DNA from: Patescibacteria group bacterium | GTDB taxonomy: Bacteria; Patescibacteriota; Patescibacteriia; Veblenbacterales; UBA10138 | NCBI GenBank assembly: GCA_041648575.1 | Contig: JBAZOT010000003.1 | Coordinates: forward strand, 14,895 to 78,894 | DNA: 64,000 nucleotides | Direction: 5' to 3' | In this document: positions 5,787 through 61,081 of the stretch, in pieces | How positions within the stretch are numbered: position 1 is the stretch's first letter | Layout: every line of letters starts with the position of its first letter | The notes under the pieces: model-generated | The model's database searches: none | What the model saw: the letters and a program-made list of their open reading frames with translations, nothing else | What the model was told of the DNA's origin: nothing | Translations under genes and position numbers: made by a program

Positions 5787-6332
5787 TTAGATCTTTTGAA
5801 TTTGTAAAAAATCCAACTCTACTGGCGTTTCCCGTCCAAACATTGAAACCAATACTTTTACTTTACCCCGACCTTCGTCTACCTCGGATACCTTACCGTC
5901 AAAATCCTTAAAAGGCCCATCACTAATTTTTACTGCCATACCAACAGTCACATCCATTTTATAAGTTGGCTCTTCAATGCCCATTCTTTTTTGCAACGCC
6001 TTCATTTCTTCTTCTGAAACTGGAGTTGGAGTGGTGCCGCTACCAATAAATCCAGTAACATTTGGGGTATTACGCACCACATACCATGAATCATCAGTCA
6101 CCATCATTTCCACTAATACGTATCCTGGAAAAATTTTCTCTTCAACCACTTTACGCTTGCCATTTTTAATGCGAATCTTTTTTTCAGTGGGAATTAAAAT
6201 ATTAAAAATCTTATCACCCATATCCATTGATTCAATACGCTGCTTTAAATTGCGGGTAACATTTTCCTCATAACCAGAATAGGTATGTAGGGCATACCAA
6301 CGTCTACCTTGTTGTATTATCTGTCGCGGCAT
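5787..6332 (-). CDS. nusG: transcription termination/antitermination factor NusG
   Basis: RWYALHTYSGYEENV (NGN domain) and a C-terminal KOW domain. I prefer ATG 6330-6332 (MPRQ) over the TTG at 6344 in the ORF track, because that TTG lies inside the repeat element. Confidence 0.9.
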   Translation of the reverse strand: MPRQIIQQGRRWYALHTYSGYEENVTRNLKQRIESMDMGDKIFNILIPTEKKIRIKNGKRKVVEEKIFPGYVLVEMMVTDDSWYVVRNTPNVTGFIGSGTTPTPVSEEEMKALQKRMGIEEPTYKMDVTVGMAVKISDGPFKDFDGKVSEVDEGRGKVKVLVSMFGRETPVELDFLQIQKI

Positions 6333-6333
6333 A

Positions 6334-6481
6334 TCCAGTAACAATAACTTGACCTGCTAAAAATTAAGCGAGTCAAAAGTTTATTTAATAGTTAGATCGG
6401 TCTTGTTTAAAAAAGATAACATAGATTAATAGTATAGATAATTTCTATCAGCACGAGCTTAAGTCAAGTTTTGTTACTGGA
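6334..6481 (-). mobile_element. MITE-like element copy 1 (148 bp) with about 20-bp terminal inverted repeats and CATA flanking duplication
   Basis: The ends are TCCAGTAACAATAACTTGAC ... GTCAAGTTTTGTTACTGGA. CATA occurs at 6330-6333 and 6482-6485. A second copy lies at 51634-51774. Confidence 0.75.
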
Positions 6482-6487
6482 CATAAT

Positions 6488-6676
6488 TTATTTATATAAT
6501 AATTGCTGCAACCCTATATTAAAAATATAATCTAAGGCGCCTAAAAAAATAGCTACCCCCAAAGAAATACCAATCACCAACAAAGTATGTTGGGTAGTTT
6601 CTTTTTTGGTAGGCCAAACAACCCTTTTAAGTTCTTCAATTGATTGTTTAAAATAATTGGTTAATTTATTAGGCAT
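6488..6676 (-). CDS. secE: preprotein translocase subunit SecE
   Basis: 62 aa with VVWPTKKET followed by a single TM helix. Lies upstream of nusG. Confidence 0.8.
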   Translation of the reverse strand: MPNKLTNYFKQSIEELKRVVWPTKKETTQHTLLVIGISLGVAIFLGALDYIFNIGLQQLLYK

Positions 6677-6725
6677 AACGATCTTAAAATCAATTATTCA
6701 TTAAAATAAAACCCAGTTTTTAAAG

Positions 6726-6752
6726 TCTTTTAAAAGGCCCCTTGCTGGGCCT
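6726..6752 (-). terminator. hairpin plus U-tract (terminator or attenuator) upstream of secE
   Basis: The minus strand reads GGCCCAGCAAGGGGCC followed by UUUUAAAAG (stem 6736-6740 with 6747-6751). Confidence 0.4.
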
Positions 6753-6846
6753 CTATTAAAAAGAATAGCACGAAGTTAAAATGCTGGCAAGTGCCTAAAA
6801 CACTATTGAAAATTAATAAAAAGCCCTAAATACCGTAGTAGTTGGG

Positions 6847-7039
6847 AGATAGTGGTGAAGATTATTAAGAATTAATGTTTTGTAGAGAAGATGTGCAGAT
6901 GCACAAGGGGCGAGTTTTTTAGTAGGAGTTTGGGGATACAATTTAAACCTCTAAGTTATAAAGATTTAAATTGTATCCCTGTCACCACGCTACCAACCTG
7001 CCTGTTTTTCCTCTTGTTAATCCTTCTCCACCACCATCT
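6847..7039 (-). ncRNA. candidate 193-nt rod-shaped RNA (6S-like architecture), or a structured leader of the secE operon
   Basis: It starts at the predicted TSS of a consensus promoter. There is a 15-bp closing stem (7039-7025 with 6847-6861, including 2 G.U pairs that form only on the minus-strand RNA), a loosely paired centre, and a perfect 15-bp apical stem (6933-6947 with 6965-6979). No ORF. Confidence 0.45.
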
Positions 7040-7045
7040 ATCTTA

Positions 7046-7074
7046 ATTTTACTCCTAAATTAACAATTTGTCAA
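7046..7074 (-). promoter_or_regulatory. sigma70-type promoter TTGACA-17-TAAAAT
   Basis: Reverse complement: TTGACA (7074-7069), the 17-nt spacer AATTGTTAATTTAGGAG, then TAAAAT (7051-7046). Predicted start is A at 7039. Confidence 0.6.
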
Positions 7075-7105
7075 ATCAACCAAATTTGGATTGCGTATAA
7101 CGTAT

Positions 7106-7170
7106 GCGGATATGAGAAGTTGCGAAGCAATTTGGGATGAGACTCTGCAAGAGCCGAGACTCATATCCGC
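7106..7170. repeat. 65-bp GC-rich palindromic element
   Basis: Perfect 11-bp arms GCGGATATGAG / CTCATATCCGC with inner mini-hairpins TTGC-GAA-GCAA and CTCT-GCA-AGAG. It shares GCGGAT and CGAAGCAAT with the pheT insert. Confidence 0.6.
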
Positions 7171-7171
7171 T

Positions 7172-7237
7172 GTTAGGCGAGGGTGAGCGACCAACGGGAG
7201 CGAAAGTGCAACGCCCCCTTGAGTTCAAACCTGAGCC
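7172..7237. repeat. left terminal inverted repeat of the SDR cassette, interrupted by a 41-bp GC-rich insert (7181-7221)
   Basis: GTTAGGCGA[41 nt]AGTTCAAACCTGAGCC matches the reverse complement of 8032-8056 (GTTAGGCGAAATTCAAACCTGAGCC) at 24/25 once the insert is removed. Confidence 0.65.
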
Positions 7238-7247
7238 GTCCCTCAAT

Positions 7248-32711: not shown

Positions 32712-32749
32712 TAGTCATTTACCCTTTCGCGCGAAAGGGTAAATGACTA
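32712..32749. repeat. 38-bp perfect palindrome TAGTCATTTACCCTTTCGC|GCGAAAGGGTAAATGACTA
   Basis: Read directly from the sequence. It lies between the arsR-like stop and the promoter of the 240-aa gene. Confidence 0.8.
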
Positions 32750-33062: not shown

Positions 33063-33100
33063 AGTATATCATATTTACTGATTCGCGCGAAAGGGTAAAT
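33063..33100 (-). promoter_or_regulatory. leaderless arsR promoter (TGA TATACT, 6 nt from the ATG) overlapped by a degenerate copy of the TTTACCC..GGGTAAA palindrome
   Basis: ATTTACTGATTCGCGCGAAAGGGTAAAT (33073-33100) covers the -35 position and may be an operator. Confidence 0.45.
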
Positions 33101-49739: not shown

Positions 49740-51632
49740 TTATCTAACAACCACTCCTTTGCCTTGCGCGCCTAAATCATTATCCAGTTCTGTGGTAACT
49801 AATTTATCTGTAGCAATTAAATCTGCACCGCTATAAGCATCCCGAGCTGTGGCAGTGGTGGTTTTTACCAACACTAAAATTTTATCCGCATCTTGCTCTG
49901 CCGGTGTAATAGCTACTTCAAAAGACGCTTCTGGTTTATCAAATTTAAACCCTACGCCCGCAGGCAGACGATTTAATTCCCAACGCACTTCGCGAGTATT
50001 GGGATTATATGTTAATGGCTGGCCATGCGATACTGTCGTTTGTCCGGTCCAGGTTACATCTTGGGGTAAAGTAGTAGTAACTTCAACGTTGCTAGCCTCA
50101 TTAATAGTATTGGCTAATCTCCAAAAAATATTATAAGTGGTAGTGTTGCCTACTCGCGGCGGCAACTGTCCCGAGCCAATTTTTATCAACTGATCTGTGT
50201 AATACCTACCTTCTGTTTGAACTAATAATTGTGTATTAATCTTGGTAATTATAATATTTGATTCAGTAGTAACCGGCTGTAATTTACCACCAATCAATTG
50301 CTCGGCACTCGCCTTAACGCTGGTATTAAAACTATAAGGCGACATATTGTTAGGAGCAACACTTACAACTTTCAAGCGAAAATTAATACTGCCTTTGGTA
50401 CCAGGAGCAACTCTAGCTAAACTGGGCAACTCATTTTTTGTCCAAACCACTGCGTTTTCTGTCTCTTTAACATTAGTTGGCGTATCTGTTTGCCAAGAGG
50501 TCCAATCTAATAACTCGGAATTTAATTTGGTCTCTAACACTAAATTAGTTAAAGCAATTTCCCCTTCATTAGCATAACGCAATTCAAAATCAATTTGTTC
50601 CCCCCAATCAGCATAGCTTTTTAAAACTACCTGATTCGCAGTTAATGACAATGTTAAATGAGACTCAATTAACGTTACAGATATTTTCTTTTCTTCTTGA
50701 ATAGTAAAAGTATTATCGTCATTAATCACACCAATGGCTACAGAAAAATCCTGAATACCAGCACTAGCTGAAGTGGTAAACCTGCCGGTAAATTCCAGCT
50801 CGCCAACACTTTTGGCAGATAGGTCATCCAATTTCCATAAATTTATTTCGCCAATTACTGATTCTAATTTTGGAAGATCCAATTCGAAGCCGCTGGGGCT
50901 AATGAATTTTAATGCTAAATTCGGCAACGCCGCAGTAGAAGTATTATTATACTTAATTTTTAATGCCAAATCTTGATCAAAAGGTAATTGTGCAGGAGCT
51001 TCTAAATCTATGGTTACTACCGAAGCAATTAATTCTGTGGAAAAAACTGTCGTCTTGGCAAACTGTGCTTTAAAATTTTCCGGCTCATATGTAAAAACCG
51101 CGGCCATTTCCTTAATCTCGCCAACCTCACCAACCATTTGCCCGGTTATTACCAACTCTCCACTACCTTTGGCGTCAACTTGACCTAAGAGAAATCTAGT
51201 CTTGGCTTCATCATCAGCTGGTTTACTGGTTTCAGTTACGACAAAACCAGTCGGATAGCGAAAATTAACTTCCAAAAAATTTAAACCAACTCCCTGATCA
51301 TTATTCCAAGACAAAGTATAATTAATCATTTGCCCCGATGGCGCACTGACTGGACCAGATAATTTCACCTTAACCGCTTCTTCGCCAAATTTTGTATTCT
51401 GACCACTAAAAAAAACAAACCAAATGCCACCGACAATAATTACCACTAATAAAGTGGTCGTTAACCATAACCAACCACGCTGACGTGAAGCTTTTTTTCT
51501 TAGCACGCGAAAATCTTCAGGTGGATCTTGGCGATACATGCGCGCCAATTCACGCTCGGCAACTTCTGCAGTTAAAGGTGTTTTTTTTGATTTTGATAAA
51601 GTATCAAGAGGTGGCCTAGAAATATTAGACAT
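49740..51632 (-). CDS. large membrane-anchored surface protein with repeated beta-sandwich (DUF11/CARDB-like) modules
   Basis: N-terminal cytoplasmic tail, one TM helix (LWLTTTLLVVIIVGGIWFVFF), then about 550 aa rich in T/V/N. I prefer ATG 51630-51632 over the TTG inside the repeat. Confidence 0.6.
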   Translation of the reverse strand: MSNISRPPLDTLSKSKKTPLTAEVAERELARMYRQDPPEDFRVLRKKASRQRGWLWLTTTLLVVIIVGGIWFVFFSGQNTKFGEEAVKVKLSGPVSAPSGQMINYTLSWNNDQGVGLNFLEVNFRYPTGFVVTETSKPADDEAKTRFLLGQVDAKGSGELVITGQMVGEVGEIKEMAAVFTYEPENFKAQFAKTTVFSTELIASVVTIDLEAPAQLPFDQDLALKIKYNNTSTAALPNLALKFISPSGFELDLPKLESVIGEINLWKLDDLSAKSVGELEFTGRFTTSASAGIQDFSVAIGVINDDNTFTIQEEKKISVTLIESHLTLSLTANQVVLKSYADWGEQIDFELRYANEGEIALTNLVLETKLNSELLDWTSWQTDTPTNVKETENAVVWTKNELPSLARVAPGTKGSINFRLKVVSVAPNNMSPYSFNTSVKASAEQLIGGKLQPVTTESNIIITKINTQLLVQTEGRYYTDQLIKIGSGQLPPRVGNTTTYNIFWRLANTINEASNVEVTTTLPQDVTWTGQTTVSHGQPLTYNPNTREVRWELNRLPAGVGFKFDKPEASFEVAITPAEQDADKILVLVKTTTATARDAYSGADLIATDKLVTTELDNDLGAQGKGVVVR

Positions 51633-51633
51633 A

Positions 51634-51774
51634 CCCAGTAACAAAAACTTGACCTGCTAAAAATTAAGCGAGTCGAGATAATTAATAATAAAAGTTGGTT
51701 GGTTTATAAAAGCTGACATAAATTGATAATATAGATGATTTTTACCAGAGCTTAAGTCAAGTTTTGTTACTAGG
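51634..51774 (-). mobile_element. MITE-like element copy 2 (141 bp)
   Basis: The ends are CCCAGTAACAAAAACTTGAC ... GTCAAGTTTTGTTACTAGG. CATA occurs at 51630-33 and 51775-78. It has the same orientation relative to transcription as copy 1. Confidence 0.75.
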
Positions 51775-51779
51775 CATAT

Positions 51780-60292: not shown

Positions 60293-60550
60293 TTAAATTA
60301 GACTTAATGTTTCTCTTAATATTAGATGTAAAGATTTTTTCCCAGGATTAGTTTTAAAATATTTCTCGCGCCTTAGGGCGTCACCCTTAGCTAAAAAACC
60401 TTCATAAAAAATTAATTTACACGGGCGTCTATTCTTGGTAGCGGGTGCCCCTCCTGCGTTATGTGTTTTAACTCTGTCCTTTAAATTCGAAGTAAAACCA
60501 ATATAAAACTTTTTATCTTTCAAACTATATAATAGGTAAACGTAATACAT
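60293..60550 (-). CDS. GIY-YIG nuclease family protein (small stand-alone type)
   Basis: Matches MYYVYLLYSLKDKKFYIGFTSNLKDRVKTHN...ALRREKYFK. I prefer ATG 60548-50 over the upstream start in the ORF track. Confidence 0.8.
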   Translation of the reverse strand: MYYVYLLYSLKDKKFYIGFTSNLKDRVKTHNAGGAPATKNRRPCKLIFYEGFLAKGDALRREKYFKTNPGKKSLHLILRETLSLI

Positions 60551-60593: not shown

Positions 60594-60700
60594 CATGAAG
60601 TATATGCTAGCAAATTAATACGCCATGAAGTTGTATAAAGAAGTAAATACTTCTTGGCTCGCCATGAAGTTATGCGAATAAAATGAGCATATACTTCATG
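60594..60700. repeat. cluster of CATGAAGT/ACTTCATG repeats abutting the tmRNA 3' end
   Basis: A 15-bp inverted repeat CATGAAGTATATGCT (60594-608) pairs with AGCATATACTTCATG (60686-700). The direct repeat CGCCATGAAGTT occurs twice, and there is an inner hairpin AGAAGTA-AA-TACTTCT. Confidence 0.6.
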
Positions 60701-61081
60701 GTGGAGATGGCGGGAATTACACCCGCGTCTAAGACAATTAACTTTACCCTTCTACAAACTTAGTCTGATTAATTTTGACAGAAGTCAAATCAGACCAAAG
60801 CCCCTGTCAATCTGTCCTAAGTAATGTCGGCCTAAGCACTAGAACAATACTTAAACCCTGCTCGATAAATGACGCTCTATAAGACTATCGAGATCGTCTA
60901 ATAGAACGGCCTCTGCTTAAATTAAGCAAAAGCTGGTGCTAGTGTCAAAGTGCTAAAAGCAGCTTTGGCGCGAGCTACAAATGATTTGGCATTTGTGAAG
61001 TGTGATGCTTTTATTACGCAGACACATCAACTGCGGTCTGCCAGACAAAGATCACTGCCTTATCGATTGTTAAACATCCCC
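60699..61081 (-). ncRNA. ssrA: tmRNA (transfer-messenger RNA)
   Basis: The 5' GGGGATG pairs with the 3' CATCTCC-A-CCA, including a G3.U pair. T-arm GCGGG-TGTAATT-CCCGC. An internal tag frame ends ...LAPAFA-TAA with the stop inside hairpin GCTTAA-TT-TAAGC. Adjacent to smpB. Confidence 0.85.

Follow-up and report, generated by a model that had tools for sequence, protein, structure and literature searches.

The Correia elements of Neisseria (CREE/NEMIS), for which co-transcription, long RNA hairpins and effects on neighbour gene expression have been documented (PMC2649163, PMC10969869), and Chunjie, a MITE (miniature inverted-repeat transposable element) of Geobacter uraniireducens whose original title, as cited in PMC3184786 and PMC10969869, states that operon structure is left undisturbed, are among the described systems closest to the element reported here. 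This element is a segment of 148 bp that separates the stop codon of secE from the start codon of nusG in a stretch of 64,000 nucleotides from a Patescibacteria group bacterium (GCA_041648575.1, contig JBAZOT010000003.1, positions 14,895 to 78,894; hereafter the window). With high confidence, it can be considered as a non-autonomous terminal-inverted-repeat transposon, i.e. a MITE, that belongs to a previously undescribed family of Patescibacteria. It is also likely that this identity and the insertion history of the element hold together with a real bias in the placement of the family. MITE reviews and full-text literature searches yielded no account of MITEs in Patescibacteria, nor of MITEs that insert specifically at start codons, and start codons are never mentioned in a 2024 review of prokaryotic MITEs.

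Structure and insertion history of the nusG element

The genes near the element are all located on the minus strand, in the order secE, nusG, rplK and rplA. On the plus strand, the element (6334–6481) reads TCCAGTAACAATAACTTGAC ... GTCAAGTTTTGTTACTGGA and is flanked on both sides by CATA (6330–6333 and 6482–6485). On the transcribed strand, the whole junction is TAA-ATT-[TATG]-TCCAGTAACAAAACTTGAC-(109 nt)-GTCAAGTTATTGTTACTGGA-[TATG]-CCG, the first triplet being the stop codon of secE and the last ATG the start codon of nusG. Its upstream end can be read as TAA-ATT-ATG-TCC-AGT-AAC-AAA-ACT-TGA, which includes a mini open reading frame (mini-ORF) encoding MSSNKT, and its downstream end as GTTACTGGA-T-ATG-CCG. 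When up to 3 mismatches are allowed, the 19-nt arm has 2 matches, against 0.05 expected in shuffled sequences. An earlier note, made from the letters of the window alone, had described a 148-bp segment with inverted repeats and CATA flanks; its coordinates, the arms of 19 and 20 nt, the bulge base and the 4-nt repeat were all recovered, and the six-codon mini-ORF ending inside the 5' arm that it claimed is present in the sequence.

A second copy, which the same note had placed in the window with the same CATA flanks, was found exactly there (Table 1). It lies between the stop codon of recO (TAA-AT-ATG junction) and the ATG of a gene encoding a 630-aa DUF11 protein. This copy is 141 bp long, against 148 bp at nusG, and the two have 43 of 45 nt in common at one end and 31 of 34 nt at the other. 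Their overall identity is 86% (mean column identity, MAFFT) or 81% (gapped blastn alignment). Among the five subfamilies described below, four have a GCTCGC motif near both ends of the element, directly repeated and replaced in some copies by GCAAGC or GCTTGC; the single copy of subfamily C lacks it. This motif could be a protein-binding site.

Contigs encoding NusG proteins 91–93% identical to that of the window were traced, giving five related genomes whose secE–nusG junctions could be compared. The element is absent from this junction in all five. In two of them, it reads secE-TAA-ACT-ATG-nusG and secE-TAA-TTT-ATG-nusG, i.e. the junction of the window minus the element and one TATG. In a third relative, the spacer is 13 nt long, and in the two others, unrelated spacers of 42 nt and 135 nt (the latter in L083) are found. 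The site of the second copy is empty in L078 (RecO 89% identical), where it reads TAG-TTAT-ATG, and filled in L077 (RecO 90% identical). The insertion proposed in the earlier note was thus borne out for both window copies, since the empty junctions that it predicts exist in relatives. Taken together, the empty sites at both loci and the filled site of L077 indicate an insertion and not a conserved nusG leader.

The alternative would be a conserved, non-mobile, cis-regulatory leader RNA of nusG (an attenuator or a protein-binding leader) with CATA as a part of the conserved sequence. Such a leader would account for the stable predicted fold (z = −5.2) and for a conservation of retained orthologous copies that exceeds that of synonymous sites. 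However, the element is missing from all five related junctions and is located upstream of at least 12 unrelated genes, its flanks are duplicated target DNA, and Rfam has no match to it at gathering or at permissive thresholds. Presence at every secE–nusG junction and nowhere else, the pattern for which the note would have given up the mobile element, is clearly not what is observed. The empty sites and the dispersed copies refute the leader RNA, whose probability we regard as negligible.

Table 1. Positions of the nusG element, its parts, its relatives and the adjoining genes (window coordinates unless a locus is named).
Feature	Position	Strand	Remarks
Upstream target-site duplication copy, TATG	6482..6485	minus	ATG 6484..6482 opens the mini-ORF; 3 nt past the secE stop
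Mini-ORF ATG TCC AGT AAC AAA ACT TGA (MSSNKT*)	6464..6484	minus	stop inside the 5' arm
5' terminal inverted repeat TCCAGTAACAAAACTTGAC, 19 nt	6463..6481	minus	
AT-rich centre without long ORF	6354..6462	minus	conserved subterminal blocks: TTAAGCTCG beside the 5' arm, GACTCGCTTAATTTTTAGCAGG beside the 3' arm
3' terminal inverted repeat GTCAAGTTATTGTTACTGGA, 20 nt	6334..6353	minus	one extra base, giving a bulge conserved family-wide
Downstream duplication copy, TATG	6330..6333	minus	ATG 6332..6330 is the nusG start codon
GCTCGC-type motif	AGCTCG ~6454–6459, CTCGCT ~6369–6374	minus	alignment columns ~29–34 and ~131–136
Second copy including TATG flanks	51630..51778	minus	element 51634–51774; CATA at 51630–51633 and 51775–51778; mini-ORF MPSNKT*
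Diverged family member in L083	547–686		TTAT / TATG flanks; adjoins the start codon of secE exactly; NusG of this relative 91% identical
Tandem arrays	L056 2709–3175; L075 9857–10145; L076 9193–9362; L037 6190–6483		two end at contig ends
secE	6488..6676	minus	Pfam SecE, E = 2e-19; gene upstream of the split tight junction
nusG	5787..6332	minus	181 aa; start codon adjoins the element

Copies, target sites and orientation of the family

Other copies were searched for with patterns taken from inside the element and then with a hidden Markov model built from the copies found; the flanks were therefore not preselected. The pattern scan of a public genome collection (596 Gb) gave 32 loci, 2 of which are real. 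That of the JGI metagenomes gave 30 loci, 12 of them real, the others being lone chance 18-mers in unrelated DNA without a partner arm. A viral-contig scan with the repeat pattern only gave seven solitary matches, all due to chance. The hidden Markov model retrieved diverged relatives, and further copies came from look-ups of relatives' contigs. As a whole, about 20 distinct copies at 16 loci, all in Patescibacteria-type gene contexts, fall into five subfamilies, with 137–150 bp between the flanking repeats. The differences between the arms of these subfamilies are compensatory (TTGAC/GTCAA, TTTGC/GCAAA, TTTGG/CCAAA and TTTGT/ACAAA). The mobile, multi-copy element anticipated in the note is thus found dispersed in both the public genome and the metagenome scans.

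Some genomes harbour many copies: at least 10 at 8 sites on contigs of two related samples (Ga0209541/Ga0209542), probably one population, and at least 8 at 5 sites in the metagenome-assembled genome GCA_041645215.1. Two of the latter copies are located at the ends of contigs, as is typical of repeats that interrupt an assembly. Tandem arrays of 2–3 units, sometimes from mixed subfamilies, were also found, adjoining units having one TATG in common; the arrays located at contig ends imply that these repeats break assemblies. Two copies from different loci (L056c and L049b) are 98% identical, a level of sequence identity that indicates recent movement. When the 43-codon ORF of subfamily B was used as a protein query, only two matches were obtained, both of them further copies in the same genome.

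Against the identification as a MITE, neither an autonomous element nor a transposase bounded by matching ends turned up in the genome-collection scan, the metagenome scan, the window or the fetched flanks, with exact-match patterns that would miss diverged ends. No arm pairs 0.2–4 kb apart were found either, with a pattern so strict that it missed most known copies too. Among the genes called in 11.8 kb of the source contig beyond the window, no transposase Pfam family was detected. The window contains no further arms, in agreement with the note, which had claimed that it lacks a transposase; most of the window ORFs were not run against Pfam.

The flanking duplications are 3–5 bp long. They are TATG at ten loci, and the other flanks are ATGA, TATGA, C/TATG, TAT(G), TTGG/TTGA and CTTA. 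As the left and right flanks change together (ATGA/ATGA, CTTA/CTTA, TTGG/TTGA), they are true duplications; with the single TATG of the empty sites, this upholds the start-codon duplication claimed in the note. The same data bear on a single-strand element of the IS200/IS605 or REP type that would insert 3' of TATG and carry its own terminal TATG, the duplication being only apparent. A strictly uniform orientation, a fixed tetranucleotide next to most copies and hairpin-forming ends would all fit such an element. However, both flanks vary at the non-TATG sites, duplications of 3–5 bp fit a staggered cut of the DDE type and therefore argue against an IS200/IS605-type mechanism, and the element has terminal inverted repeats of 19–22 bp. 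Long terminal inverted repeats are not known as a feature of IS200/IS605. An IS200/IS605-derived or REP-type identity, to which we give hardly any weight, is thus ruled out by such repeats and by duplications that are real and differ in sequence from site to site.

The downstream sequence is known for 14 sites, which can thus be scored. At 12 of them, the 3' end of the element adjoins the start codon of a real gene, i.e. nusG, secE, rpsE, rplB, rplX (in two genomes), greA, ruvA, the genes for an RmlC-like epimerase and a DUF11 protein, and two others. Some of these sites are tight operon junctions, in which a stop codon is located 1–3 nt upstream or overlaps the start codon as ATGA. Others lie 6–9 nt past a −10 box, i.e. 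at leaderless starts. The element is in the sense orientation at 16 of 16 loci (P = 3e-5). The host itself can be described from a census of the window, which called 62 ORFs of at least 90 codons each, covering 88% of the sequence. Shine–Dalgarno motifs are nearly absent from these ORFs, and many TATAAT or TACAAT −10 boxes are found 6–9 nt before ATG, a proximity that suggests leaderless starts. In such a host, the start codon itself would therefore be the point of ribosome delivery.

Several observations weigh against a special relationship with start codons. Forty-four of the 62 window genes (71%) start with TATG, and 41 (42%) of the 97 window TATG sites that would not break a coding sequence if hit are sense start codons. 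Two copies with other duplications are located off start codons, in roomier intergenic DNA, one (L049a) in a −35 box and the other (L061-D) 46 nt upstream of rpsH. The L083 copy lacks the upstream ATG. In addition, as 58 of the 62 called window ORFs are on one strand, transcription and replication cannot be told apart as the reference for orientation. All but the last of these observations would be expected from the same mobile element if the start-codon pattern were devoid of function. Its transposase would prefer TATG, the usual start context in an AT-rich genome without Shine–Dalgarno sequences, selection would clear genic insertions, and the mini-ORF and the adjacent ATGs would be accidental. 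However, a modest excess persists (12 of 14 sites at start codons against 42% expected for TATG, binomial P = 1.1e-3; with ATG alone as the target, 25% would be expected, P = 3e-6), and the register of the duplication shifts (ATGA, TATGA, C/TATG) with ATG still kept. Furthermore, an absolute sense orientation is unexpected from a symmetric transposase complex, and retained copies are far better conserved than synonymous sites. A preference for TATG combined with purifying selection against coding insertions thus accounts for a large part of the start-codon bias but not for the whole of it, nor for the uniform orientation. We consider a real preference for start codons and for the sense orientation as probable, and a pattern without function as rather doubtful.

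Conservation, predicted fold and a possible mechanism

Retained copies evolve several times slower than synonymous sites. In the orthologous pair L018/L053, which precedes an RmlC-like gene, the element is 82% identical, against 56% at the 4-fold sites of the flanking gene; both arms are identical and only one mismatch is found in the last 45 nt. In the orthologous pair made of the second window copy and L077, identity is 83% with gaps and 88% at aligned bases, against 47% at the 4-fold sites of RecO. The difference is highly significant for both pairs. As a neutral relic would decay like synonymous sites, the retained copies appear to be constrained: either their sequence would now be needed by the host, or the copies would have been homogenised by conversion. 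A point against a need for the complete hairpin is that the last three stem pairs of L077, next to ATG, have decayed; the full stem is therefore not strictly required.

The long terminal stem claimed in the earlier note is also predicted here: when folded, both window copies give about 25 pairs, with energies of −41.2 kcal/mol for the nusG copy and −37.8 kcal/mol for the second copy (z of −5.2 and −6.1, respectively, against dinucleotide shuffles). Among 17 consensus stem pairs across 20 copies, 6 have compensatory changes between subfamilies. One-sided changes (7 G.U against 2 C.A in the sense RNA) are suggestive, not significant. However, the repeats are nearly invariant within a subfamily, so that covariation cannot tell an RNA stem from protein-bound DNA repeats. 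In the interior of the element, no secondary structure is supported by RNAalifold, which retains the terminal stem only, and no convincing covariation was found. By eye, a small 3' subterminal hairpin can be seen, as well as possible mutually exclusive pairings (CTTG/CAAG in subfamily A and AACCAC/GTGGTT in subfamily B).

The predicted stem might be a substrate for RNase III, which binds and cuts the Correia elements of Neisseria (PMC2649163, PMC10969869). In a Correia-like processing, RNase III would cut the read-through hairpin and part the secE and nusG messages; the remaining nusG leader of about 10 nt would be usable by a ribosome adapted to leaderless messages, and the mini-ORF would be irrelevant. 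A stem predicted at 22–26 bp in all copies, with its bulge at a conserved position, and the many leaderless-type starts of the host genome would agree with such a processing. However, it leaves unexplained why the duplication must hold ATG and why no copies are found a few bases upstream of start codons, and we consider it as unlikely.

The orientation bias would also be explained by a mobile promoter, outward- or inward-facing, composed of TTGACA in the 5' arm and an A/T-rich box and driving the downstream gene. TTGAC(A/T) is indeed invariant in subfamily A, a scan gives TTGACT-18-AATTAT at 6467..6438 (9 of 12 matches), and Correia elements can create promoters (PMC2649163). However, a promoter scan of the second copy finds no promoter-like site, AAATTT or AATTAT makes a weak putative −10 box when compared with the clear TATAAT/TACAAT boxes of the host, and subfamilies B to E have TTTGC, TTTGG or TTTGT in place of TTGAC. 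An internal promoter was rejected, as its candidate boxes are not conserved between copies or subfamilies, and a mobile promoter appears very unlikely.

A mini-ORF is found in every copy having an upstream ATG. It has six codons (MPSNKT, MLSNKT or MSSNKT) in all TATG-type copies of subfamily A and three in the copies with a shifted duplication. In subfamily B, the duplicated ATG opens an ORF of 40–43 codons, whose stop codon lies 10–19 nt before the downstream ATG.

In our interpretation, the element inserted into the tight secE-TAA-ATT-ATG-nusG junction through a 4-bp staggered cut at TATG. The start codon was thereby duplicated, with one copy at each end of the element. The family probably favours (T)ATG where genes begin, is oriented like the gene at every locus and can stack in tandem by re-using the regenerated TATG. 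For the remaining steps, the following scenario could be proposed. The element would have been mobilised in trans by a transposase that is probably of the DDE type. After insertion, it would be transcribed by read-through as a part of the operon, and its arms would fold into a hairpin of about 25 bp that places the two ATGs side by side at its base. The initiation or coupling signals of the host (terminating ribosome or leaderless 5' end), themselves unchanged, would then act on the upstream ATG and start the mini-ORF. By melting the stem, ribosomes moving along the 5' arm would make the real nusG ATG accessible for initiation or reinitiation, and nusG expression would survive.

An unmasking of the nusG start by translation of the mini-ORF, which would keep coupling, had been put forward in the earlier note and is possible. 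This inferred mechanism would fit the anatomy of the element, and the start-codon bias, the sense orientation, the conserved mini-ORF and the good conservation of retained copies would all be in keeping with it; no other model considered offers a reason for ATG to be duplicated. In its most complete form, these elements would be start-codon-homing transposons with a built-in device making insertion harmless. The duplication of ATG would hand the initiation or coupling signal of the host to the mini-ORF of the 5' arm, whose translation would open the hairpin and pass ribosomes to the true start, and the inserted element would be kept by purifying selection as a part of the initiation region. 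This complete form is speculative and, in our opinion, somewhat unlikely.

Gene context and comparison with known systems

The window is part of a 101-kb Patescibacteria contig, in which the exact NusG is P0134. The 181 aa of the nusG product are also the length of all 120 homologues among the matches listed. As the identical element sequence is found in an independent assembly of another sample (L085), the element is not an assembly artefact. Because of an in-frame TTG in the 3' arm, a mechanical ORF listing adds four codons of the element to nusG (5787–6344; TTG start, MLLDM...) and to the DUF11 gene (49740–51644; MLLGM...), whereas the nusG start is ATG in the public annotation. In practice, ORF calls thus run downstream proteins into the element, and assemblies break at these repeats.

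Upstream of secE, about 570 nt without ORF (6677–7247, minus strand) separate it from a short-chain dehydrogenase gene. A promoter close to consensus (TTGACA-17-TAAAAT, 7074..7046) lies in this stretch; past it, about 300 nt show 84% identity to the relative L001 (3965–4248) and 70% identity to L083. The stretch also contains internal hairpins and, near its end, a GC hairpin with a T run. Rfam gives no match for this stretch, which is a candidate unannotated small RNA. Elsewhere in the window, an 85-aa ORF of the GIY-YIG nuclease family (Pfam; 60293–60550, minus strand) is located between the tmRNA/smpB region (tmRNA 60699–61081) and infC. Palindromic hairpins around TTCGCGCGAA (ATTTACCCTTTCGCGCGAAAGGGTAAAT) lie on both sides of a 92-codon ORF (32717–32744 and 33073–33100), and a similar hairpin is found in L083 (1–26); these hairpins could form another family of small repeats or act as terminators. 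To the right of the window, two proteins of very large size (1305 aa and more than 1554 aa), neither with a Pfam match, are encoded on the contig.

The nusG family has the features by which bacterial MITEs are recognised: inverted repeats, target-site duplication, small size without a transposase gene, dispersed copies and presence/absence polymorphism. As judged from sequence, its structure is that of an ordinary MITE in all respects except a matching autonomous insertion sequence (IS), which was not found in the scans. Like Correia elements, which are 100–155 bp long, it has no transposase gene, carries long terminal inverted repeats and lies next to or between genes. The hairpin and the co-transcription of Correia elements are documented, whereas the hairpin of the nusG element is predicted and its co-transcription presumed. 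Likewise, an IHF site, promoter creation and RNase III cutting are described for Correia elements, not for the nusG family. Unlike the nusG family, whose duplications are of 3–5 bp and usually TATG, Correia elements duplicate TA; they belong to a different phylum, have an unrelated sequence (the arm of the nusG family being CCAGTAACAAAACTTGAC) and are not reported at start codons or in a fixed orientation. A Correia/NEMIS identity was rejected, as neither the TA duplication nor the 26-bp Correia repeat is present. According to the accounts given in PMC3184786 and PMC10969869, Chunjie also lies within an operon, carries conserved inverted repeats as well as direct repeats, and occurs in many intergenic copies. 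It is 178–235 bp long, and these accounts report neither start-codon duplication nor a mini-ORF. Nezha, a cyanobacterial MITE, was recognised as the nusG element was here, through its inverted and direct repeats, the stability of its fold and the comparison of empty with filled sites in related genomes (PMC3184786). It has an IS partner, ISNpu3, with which it has repeats in common (PMC3184786), whereas no partner of the nusG family was found in the scans made.

Mycobacterial interspersed repetitive units (MIRUs) are also intercistronic in operons and can be in tandem. Their small ORFs, reportedly described by Supply et al. in 1997, have ends that overlap the flanking stop and start codons and may thereby keep translational coupling. 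Such a layout is approached only by subfamily B, with its long ORF ending shortly before the next gene, whereas the ORF of the window copies ends in the 5' arm. Moreover, MIRUs are minisatellites without terminal inverted repeats or target-site duplication. A MIRU identity was thus rejected, given the inverted repeats and duplications found here and an ORF of only six codons in the window. In the coat–replicase coupling of the RNA phage MS2 and in the shunting of cauliflower mosaic virus over a hairpin after a short ORF, the next start codon is masked by a long-range structure, which a ribosome engaged upstream on another ORF either opens or passes over. These systems are functional analogies only, as they are not mobile elements and have no homology with the nusG element, for which unmasking is a proposal.

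Genomes of Patescibacteria (candidate phyla radiation) are very small and tightly packed, and the family sits within their secE–nusG and ribosomal-protein operons. If its preference and conservation reflect a function, the family would provide a natural example of a transposon that uses translation, with a short upstream ORF and a hairpin, to make its insertion harmless, and it would give a handle on gene initiation in organisms largely without Shine–Dalgarno sites. If it does home to start codons, the element could colonise junctions before core housekeeping genes in the most compact bacterial genomes. Compared with the known systems, its unusual traits are its placement on start codons, in the sense orientation and before core housekeeping genes, and the unusually good conservation of its retained copies.

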